Origin: a virus
Taxonomy: Duplodnaviria > Heunggongvirae > Uroviricota > Caudoviricetes
Length of the DNA stretch: 15,660 nt
IMG/VR virus record: IMGVR_UViG_3300010367_000170
Strand: one strand, 5' to 3'
Numbering within the stretch: position 1 is the stretch's first letter; every line of letters begins with the position of its first letter. Positions 331-12,168 of this stretch are shown piece by piece. The position numbers and the translations under genes were made by a program. The notes below the pieces were generated by a model. That model saw only the letters and a program-made list of their open reading frames with translations. It was not told the DNA's origin and made no database searches.

Positions 331-2130
331 CTAGCTGACAGCCGCCCACATCGTGAAAGCCCCAGTGACAGTATTCGAACCCGGGGTGATTGTCGAAGGA
401 AGAGACGTCTGAGAAGTTCCGTTCACCGCATACCGGAACGCCGCCGCAGCAGCCCCAGCGTTGGCGATCGACAAGCTCGCACCCGACGCCCGAGCCAAAG
501 TCGACGCAGTAGAGGCGTTGTTCACGAAAGCCACCCAGTACGTCCCCGCCACAGCCGCATACGGGGTGACAACCGAAGCCGTCACAATCCCCGCAGACGT
601 GATCAGCGTGTCCAGAGTTCCAGCCGCCGTGACAGCAACCCGAGTCCCCGCCGAGTTGTACAGGCCCAAGAAGTTCTGGTTGGCCGTGACCGTGGCCGCT
701 GCGGTACTGACCCCCACCGAGAGCTTGCTGACCGTAGTCGAATACCGAAGCAGAACCTGCGCCAGATAGACAGTGCCGTTCACCGTCAACGTGCTGTTCG
801 TCGTGGCCGACGGATCGTAGGTCCAAGCCAACAACGCCGAATCAGACGCCTGATACACGTTGCCCGGCACCTGAACCGAGTTCACCGTGAACAAGTCCGT
901 CTGAGGCAGCTCCAAATGGTTGTAGCTGCTAGAACCGCTGTTCGGCCACGCGTTCTGAACGTTCAACCCCACCGCCCCGTTGTTCTGGACGTTGGCGGTA
1001 GAACCGTTCTCATACGTGCCGCCGATAACGGTCGGAGCGATCACCCCAGAGGAGATCTTCAAACAGATCCCCATCGTGTCCACGTAACCGCCGGTGACCG
1101 TCGTGGAATGGGCGCCCGTGTCCAACCAGATCCCGTTACCCGTCCCCGCCTCAACGTCCGGATGAACCAGGTTCGTGGAATGCGACCCGTTGATGTACAC
1201 GCCGCTCGAAGCCGAATCATCCGCCTGAGGCAGCAGGAAACAATCAACGACACTGTTGGAGTGCGCCCCGCCGGTAATCGACACACCAACGCTGGACGTC
1301 CCCCCGTACCGGATCCGGCAAGCCCGCACCTCGTTGTAGTGGGCCGTAGCCGAGTTCATCAAAACCCCGGTCTTCGGAGCCACCCCAGACGCCCCGCCGC
1401 CGTCAACCAACAACATCTCCAACACGGACATGTTGAAGTTGGAGGCGTCGATAGCAGTACCAGAACTCGCCGCGTTCGTCTGCGACACCCTCAAATAACG
1501 CAGGTTGACCCGGATGTTCGACGCCGCCTTGATCGCCGGTGACACCGAAGCCCCGTCGAACAGGATCTGCGACCCCCACCCGTCACCCTGAAACGTTGTG
1601 CCCGTAGTGGAAACGTTCAACGTAGACGTGATCAGGTAAGACCCAGCCGGGAAGTACAGCGTGCCGCCGTTCGACGGCAACGCCGCCAACGCCAAGTTGA
1701 TCGCAGCAGTGTCATCAACAGAACCGCTACCAACCGCGCCATACGCCTTCACCGACACCCACGACAAAGCCGGAACAGTGATGGCCGCTGGAACAACCGG
1801 TGACAACGTCGAAATGTCCACCGTCGAACCCAGCGAATGCGGCAAGCTGACGCCGTAGCTCCGAGGAGACAACCCGCCGATCGTCTCCGTCACCGTCCAC
1901 GACCAGTTAGACGGCGTCAACTGCCCCGTACAAGGCAACACCACCGAGAACGCGCCGGAGCCGTTCAACGACACCGTCACCCCCACGCCACCCAACAACA
2001 CCGACCCGACAGTGTCCACCAAGACCGGGGTCGAAGGCGTGAACGTCAACGTCCCCGCCATCGCCGCGCCCGCTGGAGTCAGATACGTGCCCGTCACCGT
2101 GATGGTGAAGATGTCACCCGGCAACGCCAT
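331..2130 (-). CDS. Modular virion spike/fibre-like protein (599 aa): N-terminal anchor domain, Pectate_lyase_3-like right-handed beta-helix, C-terminal beta-rich domain
   Basis: Start reassigned to ATG 2130 (GAGGAG 6 nt upstream, just after the stop of the upstream gene at 2145). Contains WVSVKAYGAVGSGSVDDTAAINLALAAL...GGTLYFPAGSY, the classic beta-helix cap of tailspikes and depolymerases, followed by G/N/S/T-rich coils. Confidence 0.8.
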   Translation of the reverse strand: MALPGDIFTITVTGTYLTPAGAAMAGTLTFTPSTPVLVDTVGSVLLGGVGVTVSLNGSGAFSVVLPCTGQLTPSNWSWTVTETIGGLSPRSYGVSLPHSLGSTVDISTLSPVVPAAITVPALSWVSVKAYGAVGSGSVDDTAAINLALAALPSNGGTLYFPAGSYLITSTLNVSTTGTTFQGDGWGSQILFDGASVSPAIKAASNIRVNLRYLRVSQTNAASSGTAIDASNFNMSVLEMLLVDGGGASGVAPKTGVLMNSATAHYNEVRACRIRYGGTSSVGVSITGGAHSNSVVDCFLLPQADDSASSGVYINGSHSTNLVHPDVEAGTGNGIWLDTGAHSTTVTGGYVDTMGICLKISSGVIAPTVIGGTYENGSTANVQNNGAVGLNVQNAWPNSGSSSYNHLELPQTDLFTVNSVQVPGNVYQASDSALLAWTYDPSATTNSTLTVNGTVYLAQVLLRYSTTVSKLSVGVSTAAATVTANQNFLGLYNSAGTRVAVTAAGTLDTLITSAGIVTASVVTPYAAVAGTYWVAFVNNASTASTLARASGASLSIANAGAAAAAFRYAVNGTSQTSLPSTITPGSNTVTGAFTMWAAVS

Positions 2131-2144
2131 AGCCGTCTCCTCGT

Positions 2145-2480
2145 CTACGGCAACAACGCCGTCAAATCCACTGTCGAACCCAGCGTGTGCGGTATCGCCT
2201 TGCCGGGATACTGGGCTGTAGGCGCCCCGTTCAGGGCGATACCGATGGTGTAGGTGAACGCTGGGATGTTGGCGTTGTCGGTACAAGCCAACACGACACT
2301 GACGTCGTTGGAGCCGGTCAACGTCACCGCCGTCGGACCGTCAACGATGACATGCCCCACCGCGTCGATCAACGGCAGGGCACTAGGAGTGAACGTCACA
2401 GTTCCCGTTGCCTTCACCCCGAACACGTTCAACAACGTCCCGGTGACGGTGATAGTCGTCAAATCACCCGGCAACGGCAT
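2145..2480 (-). CDS. 111-aa stand-alone paralog of the N-terminal domain of the 331..2130 protein (probable virion adaptor)
   Basis: GGAGG RBS 5 nt upstream. MPLPGDLTTITVTGT...TFTPS...VVLACT...PHTLGSTVDLTALLP aligns end to end with MALPGDIFTITVTGT...TFTPS...VVLPCT...PHSLGSTVDISTLSP. Confidence 0.85.
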   Translation of the reverse strand: MPLPGDLTTITVTGTLLNVFGVKATGTVTFTPSALPLIDAVGHVIVDGPTAVTLTGSNDVSVVLACTDNANIPAFTYTIGIALNGAPTAQYPGKAIPHTLGSTVDLTALLP

Positions 2481-2657: not shown

Positions 2658-2670
2658 GTGAGCCTCCTAG

Positions 2671-2752
2671 CGGAAGATGAAGGAATCGAACCCTCTGCGG
2701 AGTTACCCGCTGACCGCTTTCGAAGCGGCTCGCCACCATTGGCCTATCTTCC
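2671..2752 (-). tRNA. tRNA-Ser(CGA), CCA not encoded
   Basis: Acceptor GGAAGAT/ATCTTCC, discriminator G, anticodon arm GCCGC-TTCGAAA-GCGGT, long variable arm GCGG-GTAACT-CCGC, T-arm GAGGG-TTCGATT-CCTTC. D-loop is short and position 8 is A. Confidence 0.85.
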
Positions 2753-2873
2753 AATGACGCCGAGTCGAAGACCCTTGGCTGTCAAGCAGCGCAGGCGTCG
2801 CGTCACGCCCCAGTACCTGGCTGATCAGGCCAAGCGCTTGCGGTTGTTAGTGACCGACACCGCCAAACGGTCG

Positions 2874-2947
2874 TCGGAATGGCAGGACTCGAACCTGCGC
2901 TCTCCTGGTCCCAAACCAGGCGCCTTCCCAAACTTGGCCACATTCCG
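2874..2947 (-). tRNA. tRNA-Pro(TGG), CCA not encoded
   Basis: Acceptor CGGAATG/CATTCCG, anticodon arm CCTGG-TTTGGGA-CCAGG, T-arm GCAGG-TTCGAGT-CCTGC, discriminator A. Confidence 0.92.
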
Positions 2948-3011
2948 AATCTGGGGCTGCCCGGACTGGCCGGACACTTGCGACCGGAGCCATACGCCCC
3001 CAGTACCCACG

Positions 3012-3085
3012 TGGATCAGGTGGGACTCGAACCCACAACCATCTGCATGCAAGGCAGACGCTCTTCCAATTGGAGCTACAGACCC
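3012..3085 (-). tRNA. tRNA-Ala(TGC), CCA not encoded
   Basis: Acceptor GGGTCTG/CTGATCC with the G3:U70 alanine identity pair (one U-U mismatch), anticodon arm TCTGC-CTTGCAT-GCAGA, T-arm GTGGG-TTCGAGT-CCCAC. Confidence 0.92.
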
Positions 3086-3087
3086 AA

Positions 3088-3159
3088 ATGCGTGGCCCGG
3101 AGTTGAACCGGGATCTCCGCCCTTCCGGACGGTGCTCTGACCCGTTGAGCTACCTCGCC
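3088..3159 (-). ncRNA. tRNA-like RNA or pseudo-tRNA with no 7-nt anticodon loop (GGAA tetraloop instead)
   Basis: D-arm TAGCTCAACGGGTCAGAGC and T-arm CCCGG-TTCAACT-CCGGG are canonical. The anticodon arm is CCGTCC-GGAA-GGGCGG (16 nt, not 17). The acceptor GGCGAGG/CCACGCA has two mismatches. Ends 2 nt from tRNA-Ala. Confidence 0.7.
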
Positions 3160-3196: not shown

Positions 3197-3559
3197 CTAC
3201 TTAGACCGCTTAGCCTTGCCCCCAGCCGGAGCAGCAGGCTCACCCTGCGTCTCAGCCGACTGGGGATCATCCTTCACTTCCGGACCGGCCGAAGTCCCCC
3301 GCTTCGGAGCTTCCTGACCCCCAGAAGCCTGCTCCTGCTCCTGCTCCTCGCCGCCCCGGTACGGCTCCCAGTCGGTAGCGTTCTTGTCGCTGTCGTCCGG
3401 GATCCACTCCTGAGCGTCCTGACCCGGAGCGTTCAACTTCAACTTCGACTGCGAGTTCTCCACCTGATGCCGGACATGATGCCCTTCCGGCCACTCGGAA
3501 CGCCGCATCGGCTGCTGCTGATTGCCAGTTGCCATCTCGTGCGCACTCTGAAAATCCAT
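3197..3559 (-). CDS. Tad2/DUF2829-like small protein (putative nucleotide-signal sponge) with an acidic, low-complexity C-terminal tail
   Basis: Residues 1-67 follow the DUF2829 pattern as I recall it: M-x-F-x-x-A...R-x-x-W (MDFQSAHEM...MRRSEW) and W-x-P-x-x-x-D-x-x-A-x-D-W (WIPDDSDKNATDW). The remaining ~50 aa are E/Q/G/A/P-rich. Confidence 0.6.
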   Translation of the reverse strand: MDFQSAHEMATGNQQQPMRRSEWPEGHHVRHQVENSQSKLKLNAPGQDAQEWIPDDSDKNATDWEPYRGGEEQEQEQASGGQEAPKRGTSAGPEVKDDPQSAETQGEPAAPAGGKAKRSK

Positions 3560-3595: not shown

Positions 3596-3919
3596 CTACG
3601 CAAGAACCCAACGGCCGTCACGGATCCACCCGTGATCACCACAGGAACACAGAACCGACGGGGACAACGTCAACGGCACCCACGACTCCACATCCCAGGT
3701 GGCCTTGCCGGGACTGATAGCCTCCGCCGTCTCGGAGGCGAACACGACCGACCCCATACAAGGGCTGCCGTCCGGCGTCGAATGCTTGATCAACAAGCCG
3801 TAGCGCTCCACGTCAGGCAGATGCGCATACTGCGGGTTCAACTCCCGGTCCGGAGCCCACGACGTCCACGTGGCGATGTGCCCGTGGCCCAAATCCAAAG
3901 GATCGCTGCTGAAAGACAT
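3596..3919 (-). CDS. 107-aa DUF6527-like putative metal-binding protein
   Basis: Start reassigned to ATG 3919, 2 nt after the upstream stop. The C-terminal W-x-V-x4-PLTLSPSVLCSCGDHGWIRDGRW resembles the DUF6527 motif (TL-x-PS...C...H-x-W-I-x-x-G-x-W), plus an upstream H...C pair (KHSTPDGSPC). Confidence 0.55.
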   Translation of the reverse strand: MSFSSDPLDLGHGHIATWTSWAPDRELNPQYAHLPDVERYGLLIKHSTPDGSPCMGSVVFASETAEAISPGKATWDVESWVPLTLSPSVLCSCGDHGWIRDGRWVLA

Positions 3920-3921
3920 GT

Positions 3922-5739
3922 CTAATCCGCCCACCAAACCGGCGACGGCGGAGTCACCGTGCCGTTCACCTTGATCCAACCCAACGGACCCACCCGGGCC
4001 GTGTACGACAACGCCCCAGACGCCTGAGAAAACACAGTCGTCAACGTCGGAGCCGTAGCACCACCCATCAACGAACTCACCTGAACCGAAGTCACCGTGC
4101 CGTTGCCCTGGAAAACGATGTTCACATACCGGCCCAACGGATTCTGCACCGCCGTGTTGATAGTCAACGCCGGAGGGCTCGCTACCGCCCCAGGGAACTG
4201 GAAGTCGCAGATCAGCTGCAACGGCGTGGACGTGTCATTGCTCAAACCCACCAGAGGTGGACCGGAGATGCCGTTGCTCTTAACGTGGAACTCCCCGCAA
4301 ACCGCTGCGAGACCACCGCCGTTGTCACGGATAGTGGACTGGCCTTCGGTGTCGTAGGAACCGGAAAGCATCGGACCCACACCGGCCTGCCCAGGACCGA
4401 TGATCTCCATCTGGTTGTTGCAGCCCTCAATGCTGACCTGATCCATGAAGATGCCGTGGCTGGCCCCGACGCCGTTGCCGCCATCGCCATAATTCCCCAC
4501 CGGACACACGCCCGACCAGCTGTACAGGATCGTGCCGCCCACCCACTCGGTGTGCTCCGTCACGAAAATCGCCCGGGTGTAGCCGCCGTGACACGTCACG
4601 TTGCGGAGCTGGTTGTTGTCGTTGTTACCAGCCGACGGCAGCAGAACCCCGATAGACACGCCAGCGCTGAAGCCGTTCGGGTTCTGGTAGTCCCCGCCGA
4701 ACGGTGCGTAGGTCGCCGCCGTCCCGTACCCGAAGTTCTCCAAAGCCGCAGCGGCGAGACCGTGGAAATTCAACGCCCCGTAGCCCCAGCCGTTCAACGA
4801 ATGCGTCGTGTACACCTGGATGTTCTGCATCCGCACCAGCGTGTTGTTGTACAGCAAGGCGTCAGTGCCGTAACCGTTGGAGCCGGTCTGCCCTGAGATG
4901 CACGCAGCGGCGCCGTTGGCGTTGAAGGCATTGAGCTGGGCGGTGGCGTTGGCGAACGCCCCGAAACTCACCAACGTAGAACCGGCAAGCTGAGGGATCT
5001 TCTGCTCCCAATGCCGCGTAGTCCCGCCGTCCGTGGCGCCCAGAATCCACAACGCCACCTTGCGGTCGGTCGTGGCTTGGATCGGGATCACCAGCTGCCC
5101 GTTGGCTTTCGTGGCTCCACCGGCCACCAGAGGACCGGCAACCCCGTAGAAGGTGCCGTTGCCGCTCGGAGGAACCCACACGATCCCGGTGCCGTTCACC
5201 TGCCCGTAGGCGTGGGCAGCGTTGATCGTGTTCTGCAACGCCACAGTGTCGTCGGTAGCCCAAAGAACCAAGGCGCCGGTGACCGTGAGCGTCGCAGAGG
5301 CCGCGAGCGTGACAACGCTCGAAGAGGTGTAGCCGATGATCGTGGTCACCAGGGTCGTAACCCCGGAAGTCAAAGCGCCCTTCACCGCGATGGCCTTGCC
5401 GACGTCCGACGGCCGGAACGGATGCGACGTGGAACACGTCAACGTCGCCTGACCGCTGGTCATAGCGCCGTCAACAGCTGACTGACCGTCGCCTACGGCC
5501 CCGTACCGGCGGACGTCGAACACCCACGCCCCAACGTTCACCGCCGACTGGTACGCCACCGACGTGTTGTCCACGCCAACCGGTACCGAACCGATGGAGG
5601 TGCTGTTCGGGTACGCCACCGGCGGTGCGCCGACGGTGGAACCTGCGACGGTCAACGAGTTCGCGGTCACAACATCCAGGTACGTGGGCCCTGGGATGAA
5701 CCGCTCAGTGGTAACAACGTAGGGTTCTGTCGCGGTCAC
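3922..5739 (-). CDS. Second beta-helix spike/depolymerase-like protein (605 aa)
   Basis: Start reassigned to GTG 5739 (GGAGG 7-8 nt upstream; GTGA overlap with the upstream stop). FDVRRYGAVGDG...TDDTVALQNTINAA is a Pectate_lyase_3-type cap split by a ~65-aa insert, followed by G/N-rich beta-helix-like coils. Confidence 0.78.
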   Translation of the reverse strand: MTATEPYVVTTERFIPGPTYLDVVTANSLTVAGSTVGAPPVAYPNSTSIGSVPVGVDNTSVAYQSAVNVGAWVFDVRRYGAVGDGQSAVDGAMTSGQATLTCSTSHPFRPSDVGKAIAVKGALTSGVTTLVTTIIGYTSSSVVTLAASATLTVTGALVLWATDDTVALQNTINAAHAYGQVNGTGIVWVPPSGNGTFYGVAGPLVAGGATKANGQLVIPIQATTDRKVALWILGATDGGTTRHWEQKIPQLAGSTLVSFGAFANATAQLNAFNANGAAACISGQTGSNGYGTDALLYNNTLVRMQNIQVYTTHSLNGWGYGALNFHGLAAAALENFGYGTAATYAPFGGDYQNPNGFSAGVSIGVLLPSAGNNDNNQLRNVTCHGGYTRAIFVTEHTEWVGGTILYSWSGVCPVGNYGDGGNGVGASHGIFMDQVSIEGCNNQMEIIGPGQAGVGPMLSGSYDTEGQSTIRDNGGGLAAVCGEFHVKSNGISGPPLVGLSNDTSTPLQLICDFQFPGAVASPPALTINTAVQNPLGRYVNIVFQGNGTVTSVQVSSLMGGATAPTLTTVFSQASGALSYTARVGPLGWIKVNGTVTPPSPVWWAD

Positions 5740-5966
5740 TGCGGCACCTCCGCTGCGAGGACCATGGCCCGGACAAAACAATCCTTGGCTTCCAGAAGTT
5801 TCCGTAGACCCGTAGTCAACTCTGGGCCGTCCGGCAAAGCCACCACCATCTCGGTGGCCAAGATCGAAAAACGGGCTGAAACGTCAGCCAGCTGCTGCGG
5901 GAGATGCCCGTACTCAAACAGCCGAAGCATATGACGGGTCGATTCGTGACGGCTCTCAAAAGACAT
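5736..5966 (-). CDS. 76-aa conserved phage helical-hairpin protein (possibly Acb2/Tad1-hairpin-like)
   Basis: ATG at 5966: MSFESRHESTRHMLRLFEYGHLPQQLADVSARF...LPDGPELTTGLRKLLEAKDCFVRA. I recognise the F-x-Y-x-HLP...GPE-x-T-x-GLRKLLEAKDC-x-VRA pattern as a widespread phage family. The gene itself is well supported; the function is uncertain. Confidence 0.7.
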   Translation of the reverse strand: MSFESRHESTRHMLRLFEYGHLPQQLADVSARFSILATEMVVALPDGPELTTGLRKLLEAKDCFVRAMVLAAEVPQ

Positions 5967-6019
5967 GAAGCCAACCTGCTTACACAACACCCTGCTGCGA
6001 AAAAGAGACAATGAAACAG

Positions 6020-6049
6020 GTCCCCAGTCCGCCCGCACGGGCTGGGGAC
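6020..6049 (-). terminator. Probable intrinsic terminator downstream of the 6058..6714 gene
   Basis: Inverted repeat GTCCCCAG...CTGGGGAC with an inner CCC-GCAC-GGG stem, followed on the minus strand by the T-rich CTGTTTCATTGTCTCTTTTT. Confidence 0.5.
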
Positions 6050-6799: not shown

Positions 6800-8479
6800 C
6801 TAGCCATCTTGACCCCTTCCCGGGCCGGGGAGCTGCTTCAGAGCCTGCTTCCGCCTAGCCCTGTACGCCTTGTCCCAAGAAGCTGCGAGAGCCCGCGTAT
6901 CACTCTCGTACGCGGTTTCCTTCTCACCCTGAGGCAAACCCACATTCGCTGGGCCTCCGGGCCGCACCGAAGGCGACATCTTCGCACCCGGTTTCAAATC
7001 CGGAACCGGAGCGATCAAACCAGCCTTCACCGCAGCCTGCATAGCCGCATCCGAACCCCACGGAGAAGGCTCCTCCGCAGGCTCCGGCAAACCAGGCACA
7101 TACCCGTTCACCCCGGCAGCCGTCAACGGCGCAGCCTTGTTCGCCACCGACGCCCGCGACATAGCCTCCATGTCGTCCCAAGCAACAATGCCCTGACGAG
7201 TCTCGAAGACGTTGATGTCACCGCCGTCAACCGGAGGCTTACCCAGCTCAGCCCGGTAATCGTTCAAGCTGTAAGCGCCGGTCTTCAACCGGGTCTCCCG
7301 CACCTGCTCCACCGTCACCGAATCCCGGAAGTCCACCTCAGCGAACTCCAGATGCCAGCCGACAATGCCGAAACCCTGCTGAACCAGGTGGAAGTTCAAC
7401 TTCTCCAACAACAAGTTGGCGATCGGGATGACCGTGTTCACCTGGAACGACTTGTTCTGGGCCTCACCCGAACCGCCACCGATGTTGCCGGTCTCGATGA
7501 TCCCCACCTTGGAGGGGGGAACCCCGAACGAGGCGATGATCTGATCCCGCAGAACACGCTCCGCATCCAGGTAGTCCGTGACCTTGCGTGGATCCAACAC
7601 CTGCACCGCGCCGCCACCGGAGGTGATCAGCGGGTTGCCGACAGCCTTCGGGCCCAGGTTGTACACCTGGTACTGCTCACGCCACCGCTGAATGTCGGTG
7701 TCCTCGTAATGCGCCAGATCCACGTGCACCCGTGGCGGGTCGCCTCGCCGGAACGTCTCCTGGATCGTGGCCATGGTGAAGATCCACGCCGTGGTAGGCA
7801 ACAGGGCAAGCTGAGCCGGGCTGACCCCGTACAGCCCTCCGCGCGGAGCGTCCAACGAAATGTGGATCACGTCTTCGGTGTCAAAATGCGCCTGCCGCAG
7901 CCCATCCACATCCTGCCGATACCCGGCAACCTCGCCGTGAGAATCCGCCATCACCGTCATCGTCGTCGAATCCAGCAGATACAACGCCACCGGCTCACCC
8001 AGCAGGCGAACAACCTCAATGTAGGAGTCACCGAACAGCATCAAATCGGTGATCACGTTCCGGAGCAGCTGGATGAAGTCTTCCGTCGGGTTGGTGAACC
8101 GCATCAGCCTGCGCAGCCGCAACACCTCCGGCGGCTCCTCCGGGACCTCGTCCTCGGGGATAGCGTCATCCGGGATGACTTCCAGACCGCCCGCCGTCAC
8201 CGTGCGGGCGATCACACCGATAGCAGCGGACATCCACGTGCACGTGTTGTAGGCGTCGTGGAGGTGCTGCAACAACTGCTGACGCTCCGCTGACGCCGCC
8301 ATCTGAGCCGAAGGCATCTCGGAGGTGAGAGGCACACCGAACTCGAAGCCTCGACGCCGGATCTGCTGCGCCGTGTACTCAGGTGTCAGAGCCTGCGCTG
8401 TCGGTGTCTTCGTGGTGGCTTCCACAACGGCCGGAGGGTCAGGCCGGAACAGGCGTGCCAGGGCGTTGCCGACTCCCAT
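6800..8479 (-). CDS. Phage portal protein
   Basis: 559 aa, downstream of terL, GGAGG RBS. Portal-like motifs: LMLFGDSY, VIHISLDAP...YGVSP, IIASFGVPPSKVGI, SLNDYRAELGKPPV. Confidence 0.93.
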   Translation of the reverse strand: MGVGNALARLFRPDPPAVVEATTKTPTAQALTPEYTAQQIRRRGFEFGVPLTSEMPSAQMAASAERQQLLQHLHDAYNTCTWMSAAIGVIARTVTAGGLEVIPDDAIPEDEVPEEPPEVLRLRRLMRFTNPTEDFIQLLRNVITDLMLFGDSYIEVVRLLGEPVALYLLDSTTMTVMADSHGEVAGYRQDVDGLRQAHFDTEDVIHISLDAPRGGLYGVSPAQLALLPTTAWIFTMATIQETFRRGDPPRVHVDLAHYEDTDIQRWREQYQVYNLGPKAVGNPLITSGGGAVQVLDPRKVTDYLDAERVLRDQIIASFGVPPSKVGIIETGNIGGGSGEAQNKSFQVNTVIPIANLLLEKLNFHLVQQGFGIVGWHLEFAEVDFRDSVTVEQVRETRLKTGAYSLNDYRAELGKPPVDGGDINVFETRQGIVAWDDMEAMSRASVANKAAPLTAAGVNGYVPGLPEPAEEPSPWGSDAAMQAAVKAGLIAPVPDLKPGAKMSPSVRPGGPANVGLPQGEKETAYESDTRALAASWDKAYRARRKQALKQLPGPGRGQDG

Positions 8480-8515: not shown

Positions 8516-8803
8516 ATGGCGAAACCCCAATGTCTGAAGTGTTCTAACACGGCCACGATCGCCATGCTGTGCGGACGGTGTCACCGGAACCAGCAGCCGA
8601 CCGAAAGTGTCGTGGCCCCACCGTCCGGGAAGCGTCCGGAAATTGCTGTACCTGCGGCCTTGCCGAATAACCGGACAGTCGAGGTTCCAGAAACGCGCTG
8701 CGAGGGACCGCAGTGTCCGGAAATGGTGGAGCAGCCGACCGGAGCGGGCAGACGCCGGAGGTTCTGCTCCGAAGCCTGCCGCAAACGCGCCGCCCGCACC
8801 TAG
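8516..8803 (+). CDS. 95-aa double zinc-finger protein, antisense between terL and portal
   Basis: N-terminal CxxC-x9-CxxC and C-terminal C-x4-C...GRRRRFCSEACRKRAAR (FCS/CGNR-like finger). Fills the terL-portal gap, and its stop overlaps the terL stop in the palindrome CTAG (8800-8803). Confidence 0.62.
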   Translation: MAKPQCLKCSNTATIAMLCGRCHRNQQPTESVVAPPSGKRPEIAVPAALPNNRTVEVPETRCEGPQCPEMVEQPTGAGRRRRFCSEACRKRAART

Positions 8804-10356
8804 ATCCCCCAAGGGTTCCCGGACGGGTGCAGCACCGGGAAGCCTCCGATCGTCTGACCGGAGTAGCCCGGGGTGAAATCCCCCCGCGCCTGAGGATCCA
8901 GCCTCACCTCAATGCCCGTAGGGACCGGCTCCGGCCAGTGGAACCGGGTTTCCGTCCCGAGGTTCACCAGCATGTACCGCAGTGCGTCAGCGGCGTGGTC
9001 CGGTGCCTTCTGGTCACTGTCCTCCGGGTTGCCGGTCTTCGCGTACGGCAAGTCCGCCAGCTCCGAGAACAGTTTCATACACGGCGAGAAAATGTGCAGC
9101 CTAGGGCAGGTGTCCCAGCCCTCAGCCTGATGCATCCGGCAAGCCGGAGCCTCCGCCAGGTACGAATGGATCCGCTGCCACCCCGCGATACGGGAACCAG
9201 GACCCTTACCGGCCTTCTCCAGGTGCACACCGTTCTCCGCATACGCCGTCGCCAACGGCTTAGCGTCTCCCAGAACGTTCCACATCGCGTCGTCGGCGTA
9301 ACGGGCGTTGATGTGCTCGTCCACACTCTCAGCTGCAAGTATCTGCCGCGCCTGGTCTGCCTCGCCCACCCCGGTCTTGTAAAGCTCCCGGTAGATCCAC
9401 AGGCGGTTGTCCTCATCCAACGCGCCCCACAGAACAGCCCACGGTGCGGCGAAACCCCAGTCCACCGACATGTACCGGCGCCAAGAATGCGGCAGCTCCA
9501 AAGGCTTCACCACGTGCCGGTCATACGACAGCTCCGAGAAGATCTGGCCCTCAAAGACGTCCCAGTTACCCTCCAGGTACGCCTTCCGCAGCTGCTCCGG
9601 CAGGCCAAGCAGGTCAGTGCGGTACTCCTCGTTCAAGTGCGGGTTGTCCGCCAACTTCGACGGAATGAAACGCACCGACCGGCCACGGACGTCCCTGATG
9701 ACCTCGGAGCCGTACTTGGTGGGCTTGATGTACCGGTCCTTTGCGGCGCTGTGAGAAGGGCCTCCAGGGTTGCTCCCGGACCTGATCCCCAGCACCGGAA
9801 CCCCCGAGTTACCGGAACGCAGACGAGACTCGATAAACGTCAACACGTCAGCCGAAGTCAGAGTGCGCTCATCAAACAACAACAGCTGAAACTCCGAACC
9901 CTGCCTACGGGAGGCGTCCACCATGTTCTCCGCATACCGGAACATCAGAATGCTCCCGTTGGGAAACCGCAGCTCATAGTCACTGCCAGCCCACTTAGCC
10001 CCCAAGACGTTAGCGAAGCCGTGCGCCGCCAACTCCTTGATCAACGACTCCTTCAGCTCCGGATACGTCCGCCGAAACGCACCCACCCGAATCCCCGGAA
10101 ACCGCACACACGCCCTGATGCCCTCCATCAACAAAGCAAGCGTCTTCCCCCCGCCCATCGCACCCCCGTACAACACGTCATACTCCGTGGCGTCATGAAA
10201 CGCCTGCTGACGCGGGGTCGGCTCGTACCCCAGAGCCTTGAACACATCAACCCTGCGCAGCTTCTCCATCTGGACCTGCTGATAGCGGGCCTGAAGCCGC
10301 TTCAACTCCTCCAACCGGGAGAGCTTGTACTGCGCCAGGCTCATCTCGCCACTCAT
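8800..10356 (-). CDS. terL: Terminase large subunit (518 aa)
   Basis: Walker A YGGAMGGGKT, Walker B LLLFDE, coupling motif SGSNPGG, nuclease-domain SVDWGF and DHAADALRY. Start reassigned to ATG 10356 because GGAGG lies 9 nt upstream. Confidence 0.96.
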   Translation of the reverse strand: MSGEMSLAQYKLSRLEELKRLQARYQQVQMEKLRRVDVFKALGYEPTPRQQAFHDATEYDVLYGGAMGGGKTLALLMEGIRACVRFPGIRVGAFRRTYPELKESLIKELAAHGFANVLGAKWAGSDYELRFPNGSILMFRYAENMVDASRRQGSEFQLLLFDERTLTSADVLTFIESRLRSGNSGVPVLGIRSGSNPGGPSHSAAKDRYIKPTKYGSEVIRDVRGRSVRFIPSKLADNPHLNEEYRTDLLGLPEQLRKAYLEGNWDVFEGQIFSELSYDRHVVKPLELPHSWRRYMSVDWGFAAPWAVLWGALDEDNRLWIYRELYKTGVGEADQARQILAAESVDEHINARYADDAMWNVLGDAKPLATAYAENGVHLEKAGKGPGSRIAGWQRIHSYLAEAPACRMHQAEGWDTCPRLHIFSPCMKLFSELADLPYAKTGNPEDSDQKAPDHAADALRYMLVNLGTETRFHWPEPVPTGIEVRLDPQARGDFTPGYSGQTIGGFPVLHPSGNPWGI

Positions 10357-10780
10357 ACTCAGCGCCCTCCAGGCGAAGCTGCTTACCCAACTCCTCAATC
10401 TGCCGGTCAATGGCATCCACTGAGGTGATCTCCAAGTTGACCTGGAGCGTCGGATCCAGCTTCAACAGCTTGGTGATACGGTCCGTGGTCTTCAAGACCA
10501 TCTCACCTGCACCCTTGTCGGCTTTGATGGCGTCCGGCCAGAACGCGCGCCTCATCCGCAGCAGCACCAGCAGCTGTTCCTCGATGAGGAGGTCAACGTT
10601 GCGGTTGCGTTCCATGACGTGCTGTTCAAGAGCGCGGTCAAGGTCCTTGCAGGCGGATGCACGATCTGCGTAGCCCAGCTGGTCTGCGATCTGCTGGAAG
10701 GTGAGGCCAGCGAGTTTCAGCTCAACGGCTTGCGCTCTGCGTTTGGCTGTGACGATTCGTTGTGCTTTCGATGCTGCCAT
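10247..10780 (-). CDS. terS: Terminase small subunit (HTH type)
   Basis: N-terminal HTH (RRAQAVELKLAGLTFQQIADQLGY), helical middle, KLLKLD and IDRQIEEL coiled segments; immediately upstream of and overlapping terL. Confidence 0.8.
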   Translation of the reverse strand: MAASKAQRIVTAKRRAQAVELKLAGLTFQQIADQLGYADRASACKDLDRALEQHVMERNRNVDLLIEEQLLVLLRMRRAFWPDAIKADKGAGEMVLKTTDRITKLLKLDPTLQVNLEITSVDAIDRQIEELGKQLRLEGAEYEWRDEPGAVQALPVGGVEAASGPLSAGPDGEAAQG

Positions 10781-10849
10781 CGTTGGCCTGCTTTCTGTGT
10801 TGGCGGGTACTTGCCGACACGGTAAGTCAGGTAAGGCGTGGTGGTCTAG

Positions 10850-11173
10850 TTAGCATTTGCAGCCTGGGTCTGGTGCTGGGCAGTCTTGTTTGTGTGTTTT
10901 GGCCATTTGGTCCCCGTTGGGGTGGCCGTCGGTTGTTTTGGGGGCGTGTTGGGTGCAGGCGTATATGGCGGCGAGGTATGGGGGTGGGCTGTGGTGGCGT
11001 GGGCCGTAGGGTCCTTGGGTGTTGAGGTAGGTGTTTTCTTCGTTTTGGGTGGCGTGGCGTTGCCATTGCCAGGTGGCTGGGTTGGTGCAGTGGGTGTTTT
11101 GGCAGCCGGGGGCTGTGGTGAGGGTTTCGCCTTCGGCGTTGAGGGTGTGGTGTGTCCAGTGGGGTTTGGCCAT
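10850..11173 (-). CDS. 107-aa Cys/His-rich hypothetical protein
   Basis: Starts 4 nt after the stop of 11178..11570. Has C-x4-C, C-x2-H and C-terminal H...C...CxC clusters. Codon bias matches its neighbours. Confidence 0.6.
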   Translation of the reverse strand: MAKPHWTHHTLNAEGETLTTAPGCQNTHCTNPATWQWQRHATQNEENTYLNTQGPYGPRHHSPPPYLAAIYACTQHAPKTTDGHPNGDQMAKTHKQDCPAPDPGCKC

Positions 11174-11177
11174 GTTG

Positions 11178-11570
11178 TTAGGTGATTTCTAGTAGGTCGA
11201 TTTGTTTCACCGGGACTTCGGGGTTGTCGGTGATTTTGATCCAGACGTTGTAGGTTCCGGCGGTGAGCGGTACTCCGCTGTTGGCTGGGCCTACGAGGAT
11301 TTGGGCGAGGTAGGTGTTGGTGCCGGTGGTTGCCCAGGTGCCGGTGTGCCAGTCGGTGTTGGCGGGGTTGGCGTTGGCGGGTTGTGGCATGAATGCGAAC
11401 GCTACGGGGTCGGCGGTGGGGTTGTAGGGGAGTCCTCCGACGATGGCTTGTACGGGGTAGGGCAGGTTTTCGGTGTTTAGGGTGCTGCGGGTGACCATTT
11501 GGGTTCCGGGGTTGGTGTTGATACGCCAGTTGGTGGCGGCTGGTCCGATGGTGAACACGGGGTTGGTCAC
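11178..11570 (-). CDS. 130-aa beta-sandwich hypothetical protein (possible BppU-N-like structural adaptor)
   Basis: GTGA overlap with the upstream gene. I recall W-x-TG-x-W...ILVGP...L-x-AG-x-Y-x-VW-x-KITD-x-PE-x-PV as a recurrent Ig-like pattern in actinophage virion proteins. Confidence 0.6.
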   Translation of the reverse strand: MTNPVFTIGPAATNWRINTNPGTQMVTRSTLNTENLPYPVQAIVGGLPYNPTADPVAFAFMPQPANANPANTDWHTGTWATTGTNTYLAQILVGPANSGVPLTAGTYNVWIKITDNPEVPVKQIDLLEIT

Positions 11571-12079
11571 GTTGCGAGTCCTGGGTTCCCGGTGGCGGCG
11601 GGGATGGGGGTGGCACGGTTTGCGAGGTCTGCGGGGGTGACTGCGGCGGGGGATTCACGTCCGCAGTTCCAGTCGAGTCCGGCTGCTTCGCCGCAGGTGG
11701 CTACGAGCTGGGAGCAGATCATGGCTTTTTCGTTGTCTGCTGCGCGGATGAGCCAGTGCCAGTTGATGCCTAGGGCGTGGAGGGATAGGCGTGCGATGTC
11801 GAGCCAGCCGTATGGGGTGCCGATGAGGGTTTCAGCTTTGGCGATGGCGCGTTGTTGTTGTTCGGGGGTGAGGGTGTCTGGGGCGTAGAGGATGGTGTCG
11901 GTGCCGTAGGCGGTGAGGTTGGAGCGGCGTGCGCCTCCGGGTGCGCCTTCGATGATGCTGCCGTGGGTGTCGGTGATGAGGACGACGTGGTTGTACTTGG
12001 AGCGGGTGCCGATGCGGATGAGCCATCCGTAGAAGCCGCCGGTGCGTATGCAGGCGTAGGTTCCTGGCTGAGGGGTCAT
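11567..12079 (-). CDS. Permuted papain-like (YiiX/YebB-type NlpC/P60) amidase/peptidase, 170 aa
   Basis: Catalytic His before Cys: YNHVVL...IGTPYGW...MICSQLVA...VTPADL, the YiiX/YebB signature order. Start reassigned to ATG 12079 because the longer ORF runs into a promoter module. Confidence 0.82.
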   Translation of the reverse strand: MTPQPGTYACIRTGGFYGWLIRIGTRSKYNHVVLITDTHGSIIEGAPGGARRSNLTAYGTDTILYAPDTLTPEQQQRAIAKAETLIGTPYGWLDIARLSLHALGINWHWLIRAADNEKAMICSQLVATCGEAAGLDWNCGRESPAAVTPADLANRATPIPAATGNPGLAT

Positions 12080-12103
12080 GGTGTTTTCCCAGTTCGAAGG
12101 GGC

Positions 12104-12132
12104 TTTACTCCGCTTAGCAATTCCAGTAGGCT
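12104..12132 (+). promoter_or_regulatory. Cassette promoter P1 (sigma70/HrdB type)
   Basis: TTTACT-N17-TAGGCT, with GCTTAGC at 12112-12118 and ACCGGAGGAG RBS at 12153-12162. Confidence 0.8.
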
Positions 12133-12168
12133 TGCCCCGTAAGCCAAACCGCACCGGAGGAGAAGCCG

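Follow-up and report, generated by a model that had tools for sequence, protein, structure and literature searches.

The window, i.e. the whole stretch of 15,660 nt analysed here (virus record IMGVR_UViG_3300010367_000170), carries on its minus strand a succession of phage genes running from the large terminase (8800-10416) and the portal (6800-8479) through two small ORFs, a pectate-lyase-like tailspike (3922-5781) and a DUF6527-like ORF of 127 aa (3596-3979) to a small gene related to the Tad2 anti-defence family (3197..3559), which is followed by a tRNA cluster (2670..3159) and by tail-fibre genes (331-2480). The tRNA cluster, identified with ARAGORN and Rfam, begins 37 nt downstream of the stop codon of the Tad2-like gene and comprises tRNAs for Ser, Pro and Ala together with a tRNA-like gene displaying an aberrant anticodon loop. 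The earlier note on this DNA had placed the Tad2-like gene in the late head region; it does lie downstream of the portal, but more precisely between the tailspike and the tRNA cluster, beyond which the tail-fibre genes are found.

Two neighbours of this gene have particularities of their own. The tRNA-like gene at the head of the cluster (3088-3159, minus strand) is given a 2-nt 'anticodon' by ARAGORN, yet reaches 40.2 bits against the tRNA model of Rfam, and a similar odd tRNA is present at 9223-9296 of L001, one of the related contigs described below. On the upstream side, the DUF6527-like ORF matches PF20137 slightly under threshold (E 1e-4, 22.6 bits for a cut-off of 23.6). DUF6527 corresponds to BubE, a Ser-His peptidase of the bacterial ubiquitination-like Bub operons which removes Ubl-target conjugates (10.1101/2024.11.21.623953), and a phage BubE-like enzyme encoded next to tail genes could free virion proteins of Ubl marks set by the host.

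The Tad2-like coding sequence is complete, with an ATG start and 120 codons before the stop, as seen from the ORF list, the translation and homologs of 56-101 aa, and both strings by which it had been described, MDFQSAHEM...RRSEW and WIPDDSDKNATDW, are present in the translation. The protein divides into a Tad2-like domain (residues 1-65, 3365..3559, minus strand), delimited by PF11195, hhalign, AlphaFold2 and VIA-align and devoid of the insertion between strands beta2 and beta3; a predicted disordered acidic linker (residues 66-112, 3224..3364, minus strand), recognised from its composition, low model confidence, tandem repeat and variable length in homologs; and a basic C-terminal patch, GGKAKRSK (residues 113-120, 3200..3223, minus strand), defined from the subfamily alignment and from the tail statistics. 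The gene call for the same protein in the sequence collection (P0001) starts at M9 and gives 112 aa. We favour M1 as the start: the homologs conserve the first eight residues (MDF/MNY/MEY..AH), position 1 of the profile is where the Pfam match starts, M1 is aligned by hhalign with M5 of SPO1 Tad2, and helix 3-11 is modelled with confidence.

Word-indexed searches retrieved 16 homologs of 56-112 aa, including the window's own protein (P0001, 112 aa), whereas an exhaustive phmmer search over 1.84 billion representatives retrieved just 4 proteins. The domain is conserved in the 15 other homologs, with W52, P54, D58, A61, D63, W64 and E65 invariant, and since these homologs keep the domain with its invariant residues, the ORF is to be considered on comparative grounds a real gene and not a chance ORF. 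A chance ORF or a decaying remnant, non-functional in either case, could account for the lack of a clear Shine-Dalgarno sequence upstream of M1 or M9 and for the GC3 of the tail, which at 0.67 is below that of the neighbouring genes (0.76-0.80); it is nonetheless extremely improbable, given the invariant residues and the confident fold, the synteny of the gene in four related contigs and the presence of stops in the other frames. A scan for promoters and terminators around the gene returned 0 promoters, with terminators at chance level. A GCTTAGC box at 3208-3214, on the opposite strand within the tail-coding region, was taken as a coincidence.

Related loci were obtained by an alignment-based scan of IMG/VR, after an earlier single-sequence scan had found none. 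They consist of four contigs (L001-L004, one of them 102.9 kb long) sharing with the window 70-84% identity in the large terminase, 73-80% in the portal and 61-81% in the tailspike. The Tad2-like gene directly precedes the tRNA genes in all four of them, while the set of small genes separating it from the tailspike changes from contig to contig: the DUF6527-like ORF has a homolog in L004 only (L004:7116-7325), and a homolog of ORF 5736-6038 of the window adjoins the Tad2-like gene in L001 and L002. Since the flanking small genes vary and the order of the Tad2-like gene and the tRNAs is kept in the four contigs, this gene stays constant within an accessory stretch that is otherwise variable. 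A conserved site ahead of tRNAs, surrounded by variable genes, is typical of accessory or counter-defence spots.

Several of the database homologs are also located on contigs of 81-107 kb, such as P0003 on a contig of 103 kb, and the source of the window is an uncultured phage of about 100 kb. Neither tblastn over 50,697 deposited phage genomes, at E<=1, nor megablast with the whole window found a homolog of the protein or a related deposited phage, respectively. The large terminase is less than 40% identical to that of any cultured phage, and no relative could be confirmed by subfamily pattern scans of GTDB genome contigs and JGI metagenome contigs. The portal mostly matches, at low identity, phages of Mycobacterium, Arthrobacter and Gordonia, and the sole match of the tailspike is in the 200-kb Streptomyces phage Frankenweenie, whose minor tail protein is 42% identical to it over 66% of the query. 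Together with a GC content of about 62% in the window, these similarities make an actinobacterial, possibly streptomycete, host plausible.

The only Pfam family matched by the 120-aa protein is PF11195 (Tad2-like/DUF2829). The match (E 3.4e-4) is full-length, covering positions 1-71 of the 73 of the profile, but its 21.5 bits remain under the gathering threshold of 25 bits. This threshold is exceeded by three close homologs, P0002, P0004 and P0005 (41-66% identical; 29.5, 26.6 and 29.0 bits, respectively), and a precomputed PF11195 match exists for 9 of the 16 database homologs. No match was found in NCBIfam, and PHROGs gave nothing better than E>0.03. When the protein itself was compared with PDB sequences by phmmer, no match was returned, and profile searches (alignments A1 and A2) returned weak matches to Tad2 proteins only (E 0.26-1.8, the solved Tad2 chains being at E 0.26-0.7). 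Alignments were also compared with one another: the subfamily alignment of 16 sequences (A2) and a reference alignment (A3) of SPO1 Tad2 (gp34.65, L005:42122-42388) with nine cultured-phage homologs were paired by hhalign over 65 columns end to end, with 89.7% probability and an E-value of 1.9e-6.

Structural comparison led to the same family. The AlphaFold2 model has pLDDT values of 84-91 at residues 1-70 and consists of helix 3-11, strands 18-20, 28-34, 37-43 and 50-51, helix 56-59 and strand 64-66. In a Foldseek search of the PDB with this model, ranks 1-24 were all occupied by Tad2 chains (SPO1, Myroides, HgmTad2/AcrIIA7 and SptTad2) with probabilities of 0.97-1.00, and beyond rank 24 the probability dropped to 0.2 or less. 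With VIA-align, the monomer model matched every solved Tad2: ten entries (SPO1, Mo, Hgm and Spt) were aligned over 65-67 residues with Z scores of 10.1-11.2 and an rmsd of 1.4-1.9 Å, the best unrelated chain reaching a Z score of 4.3. Neighbours in BFVD and the ESM Atlas were Tad2-like proteins as well, some of them in clusters of 66-73 aa. The proposal that this is a diverged member of the Tad2/DUF2829 family was thus borne out by profile, profile-profile and structural comparison, and the sequence and the model support the view of the 120-aa protein as a minimal, diverged Tad2. Considering these clusters of 66-73 aa, minimal Tad2-like proteins are already known within the family, and the window gene does not constitute a new kind of system. 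Fused or longer forms of the subfamily were looked for and none was found, which is weak evidence.

The closest point of reference is SPO1 Tad2 (gp34.65; PDB 8SME, 8SMF, 8SMG and 8WJE), the founding member of the Thoeris anti-defence 2 sponges. Like it, the window protein is a small phage protein that stands alone, and the fold is shared, with Z scores of 10.2-11.1 and an rmsd of 1.4-1.8 Å over 66 residues. The two proteins can be aligned at both end motifs, and W25, W73, D79, R22, D84 and W85 of SPO1 Tad2 are kept. The core of the window protein is, on the other hand, about 19 residues shorter, without the beta2-beta3 loop and helix alpha2, and shows Pro instead of Asn26, Asp instead of Ser76 and Ser instead of Thr78; a charged tail of 55 residues also extends it, whereas SPO1 Tad2 ends 4 residues past its final Trp. 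Their genomic settings differ too, the SPO1 gene belonging to a block of small genes beside replication functions and the window gene standing among tail genes and tRNAs.

More similar in size are gp4 of the mycobacteriophages Curiosium (72 aa) and MalagasyRose (71 aa), of which no mention was found in the Tad2 literature surveyed. These proteins are likewise minimal and without the insertion, and their genes, also in Actinomycetota phages, are located near tRNAs (within about 400 nt) and the structural module, so that the Tad2-tRNA neighbourhood recurs in phages that are only distantly related. Unlike the window protein, they have the canonical GWNG motif intact, as GWNGK in Curiosium and as GWNGP in MalagasyRose, along with the SQTD motif, and they lack a tail; their genes are upstream of the terminase instead of between tail genes. 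The annotations next to them comprise a tRNA-Trp in Curiosium (L006 774-1433) and, in MalagasyRose (L007 307-922), a tRNA-OTHER and a tRNA with a cta anticodon annotated as tRNA-Pyl.

The missing insertion bears on the idea, put forward in the earlier note, that the protein might sequester c-di-GMP and affect the development of a streptomycete host through BldD and WhiG. In the AlphaFold2 model, strands beta2 (28-34) and beta3 (37-43) are joined by a tight hairpin turn without any insertion. In the structure and hhalign alignments, about 17-19 residues of SPO1 Tad2, and more of HgmTad2, have no counterpart here; the 66 residues that can be aligned extend over 85 residues in SPO1 Tad2 and about 100 in HgmTad2 (85-103 across the solved chains). 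Insertion-less forms also exist in cultured phages, namely Curiosium gp4, MalagasyRose gp4 and a protein of Acinetobacter phage XC38. HgmTad2/AcrIIA7 and SptTad2 (PDB 8KBI-8KBM and 8WJD), which are dual sponges of gcADPR and cyclic dinucleotides, have the same core fold as the window protein (Z 10.1-10.8), but the insertion domain that forms their cGG/cGAMP pocket is lacking in the window protein. Cyclic dinucleotides are indeed bound by the beta2-beta5 insertion of HgmTad2 (residues 32-72) and SptTad2, with a very high affinity for cGG in both cases, and SPO1 Tad2, whose insertion is shorter, does not bind cyclic dinucleotides (10.1101/2023.11.15.567273). This second, cyclic-dinucleotide pocket is therefore most probably absent here. 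A dual sponge of the HgmTad2 type, also sequestering c-di-GMP and disturbing the development of its host, would draw on the very tight binding of cGG by some Tad2 homologs and on the possible streptomycete host, the sole cultured-phage match of the tailspike being in Frankenweenie; because the cGG-binding insertion is missing, and a shorter insertion already goes with an absence of binding in SPO1 Tad2, we regard it as very unlikely. An anti-CRISPR activity of the AcrIIA7 type was also considered and rejected, as it was not reproducible in the hands of Li et al. (10.1101/2023.11.15.567273).

The site that in characterised Tad2 proteins binds ADP-ribose-derived signals is altered in part. In the complex of SPO1 Tad2 with 1''-3' gcADPR, the ligand is held by W25 and W73 through van der Waals interactions and by N26 and D79 through polar ones; T78, I63 and T65 are close to the adenine, and waters are coordinated by D67, H71 and S76 (10.1101/2023.05.01.538930). 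In the hhalign register, W25, N26, W73, D79, T78 and S76 of SPO1 Tad2 correspond here to W23, P24, W52, D58, S57 and D55, and I63, T65, D67 and H71 to L42, A44, G46 and Q50, respectively. Across the ten reference proteins, F7, R22, G24, W25, N26, G27, W73, S76, D79, D84 and W85 (SPO1 numbering) are invariant. The subfamily of the window protein retains R20, W23, W52, D58, D63 and W64 and keeps position 3 aromatic; the clamping residues Trp25, Trp73 and Asp79 of SPO1 Tad2 are thereby kept, W52 and D58 being invariant and W23 conserved in at least 90% of the subfamily. The GWNGK motif has become xWPxx, with a nearly invariant Pro24 in place of the phosphate-contacting Asn26 and variable residues in place of Gly24 and Gly27. 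The Ser76 position is not conserved in the subfamily (Asp55 in the window protein) and that of Thr78 is Ser57. New conserved positions have appeared in the subfamily, the nearly invariant P24 and the invariant H28, P54 and E65, and His27/28/31 are conserved on beta2. Given the replacement of Asn by Pro and the changes in the neighbouring motif residues, the exact ligand may differ from 1''-3' gcADPR.

The characterised Tad2 proteins are homotetrameric sponges of TIR-derived signals and are promiscuous among ADPR-derived molecules. Their ligands are gcADPR for SPO1 Tad2, His-ADPR and cUMP for MoTad2, and N7-cADPR and 3'cADPR for Tad2_71. Because the window protein belongs to this family by profile, profile-profile and structural comparison, an anti-defence sponge is the best inference as to its function, and the sequestration of an ADP-ribose-derived signal made by a TIR protein the best reading, which we hold with moderate confidence. 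Residues 1-65 form the Tad2 core, in which the N-terminal helix lies against a small antiparallel sheet. Analogy with SPO1 Tad2, HgmTad2 and MoTad2 suggests that the protein would be an oligomer, probably a tetramer assembled through helix alpha1; in the monomer model this helix, the tetramer interface, is present, and helix alpha2, which together with strand beta2 mediates the dimerisation of SPO1 Tad2, is absent. Following the same analogy, pockets at the protomer interfaces would be lined by the conserved Trp23, Trp52 and Asp58 and could sequester an ADP-ribose-derived signal produced by TIR-domain (Thoeris-type) proteins of the host, whose effector would then never be activated. The location of the gene with tail genes and the tRNA cluster suggests that the protein is probably co-produced with virion proteins. 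Such a timing would be in keeping with the reported triggering of type I Thoeris by capsid proteins (Roberts et al. 2025, as cited in 10.64898/2026.06.04.730250).

Functional data on homologs allow this reading to be weighed against another one, namely that the Tad2 fold serves here for a different ligand, for example the signal of an uncharacterised actinobacterial TIR or other signalling defence, or binds no nucleotide at all. In the panel of Hadary et al. 2025, which comprised 84 proteins, 19 inhibited none of the seven defence systems; about three quarters of the tested sponge homologs inhibited at least one of them, and the authors indicate that the inactive sponges may bind undiscovered signals (10.1101/2025.08.24.671296). 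Table S2 of this study contains three Tad2 homologs of the WP type, nos. 69, 72 and 80. The outcomes given here for them come from a machine-read version of the table, the original file being the reference for checking: no. 69 (80 aa) and no. 80 (73 aa, a short form) inhibited none of the seven systems, and no. 72 (108 aa) was positive against type I Thoeris in plaque assays. The motifs of no. 72 are RRKAWPKN and GWAPGDADIKSTDWEY, and its native gene was recovered as L018:4977-5303. It shares with the window protein RR-x-x-WP and W-x-P-G/D-D-x-D...TDWEY (8 of 14 positions identical, E 5e-4), but has a long beta2-beta3 insertion and no charged tail, and its detectable similarity to the window protein is restricted to the C-terminal motif. 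With one WP-type protein positive and two negative, a Pro at the Asn position does not preclude Thoeris inhibition, nor does it guarantee it.

The reading by a different ligand, or by none, thus finds arguments in the pocket, where GWNGK and Ser76 are replaced throughout the subfamily, new invariant residues (P24, H28, P54 and E65) have appeared and the Pro for Asn change is accompanied by variable Ser76 and Thr78 positions and by the conserved histidines of beta2, as well as in the inactivity of two of the three tested WP-type homologs and the restriction of the subfamily to a small clade of uncultured phages of about 100 kb. It has to be reconciled with the retention of both clamping Trp and of the Asp79 equivalent, with the recorded activity of no. 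72 against type I Thoeris and with the known promiscuity of Tad2 among ADPR-derived signals; we therefore consider it possible without favouring it. A more specific proposal, that the WP pocket and the tail with its acidic linker and basic end define a distinct Tad2 subfamily sequestering an undescribed immune signal, the tail contributing by tethering or by capping the pocket, is put forward only tentatively and appears rather doubtful to us. If true, this tailed WP subfamily could be a handle to discover that signal, in the way that Tad2 sponges have already served as tools for immune-signal discovery (gcADPR, His-ADPR).

The tail itself consists of 55 residues after W64-E65, only 2 of them hydrophobic, and is rich in G, A, P, Q and E. 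Some 50 low-complexity residues had been announced after the domain; the 55 found are predicted to be disordered, with pLDDT values of 46-64. The acidic character attributed to them holds for residues 66-112, which have a net charge of -6, but not for the last eight, GGKAKRSK, which carry +4 and bring the whole tail to only -2. A hexanucleotide repeat at 3328-3348, the only one found, encodes EQEQEQ; no DNA-level direct repeat accounts for the longer tail. In 12 of the 15 homologs, the domain is likewise followed by an E/Q/P-rich linker of 16-36 residues and then by a K/H-rich terminus (e.g. KHKK, KSKKSR or GRKKKS), the basic end being missing in the three others. The window protein has the longest tail of the subfamily and retains the basic patch, and from these comparisons the length of the linker appears to be free and the basic end retained. 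The ten reference Tad2 proteins end 2-4 residues past the final DW and none is tailed. The tail is accordingly unusual with respect to reference Tad2, as had been remarked, but as a feature of the subfamily and not a peculiarity of the window gene.

Candidate functions for the tail are those of a solubility or spacing element, or of a tether to nucleic acid or to an acidic partner. These roles are more likely than that of a packaging signal, since a sponge acts stoichiometrically and would have to be abundant. Packaging into the virion, which the earlier note had considered from the position of the gene and the extra tail, found no supporting evidence; it fits poorly with an abundant, stoichiometric sponge, and the tail belongs to the subfamily as a whole. 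A broader form of this idea sees in the protein a small virion- or nucleic-acid-associated component in which the Tad2 fold is reused as a scaffold. The gene is located between the tailspike and fibre genes and co-oriented with them, the terminus is basic in 12 of the 15 homologs despite the free length of the linker, and no reference Tad2 has such a tail. However, the protein has no similarity to any structural protein family in Pfam, PHROGs or NCBIfam, its surroundings are a variable accessory region and not a conserved structural block, the basic end is absent in three homologs, and packaging would presumably not supply the many copies needed by a stoichiometric sponge. We consequently judge this role improbable and retain the sequestration of an ADP-ribose-derived signal as the preferred reading.

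The Tad2-like gene is thus a plausible counter-defence candidate and not a surprising discovery. The Tad2 family already has more than 2,700 known homologs, to which the window protein adds one more, carrying an altered motif in the pocket as well as the tail. What such a diverged tailed subfamily binds could be one of the known Thoeris signals, or could lead to a new one. The signalling defences of actinobacteria, the probable hosts here, are little studied, and Thoeris is not mentioned in the main text of a survey of defence systems in Actinobacteria.

Further features were observed elsewhere in the window. Among the tail-fibre genes, ORFs 2145-2480 and 331-2286 (minus strand) overlap, and a single tail-fibre PHROG is matched by both over its N-terminal ~110 residues. 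Each has about 45% identity to the counterparts that the other has in L001 and L003, which points to the N-terminal module of the fibre having been duplicated in tandem. On the other side of the terminase, the region 10500-12000 displays a strong compositional bias between the strands, with a GC skew of +0.26 to +0.44 and an AT skew of -0.38 to -0.54. Two ORFs of the minus strand are located there, 10846-11658 and 11567-12154, of which the second matches an enoyl-CoA hydratase-like PHROG.
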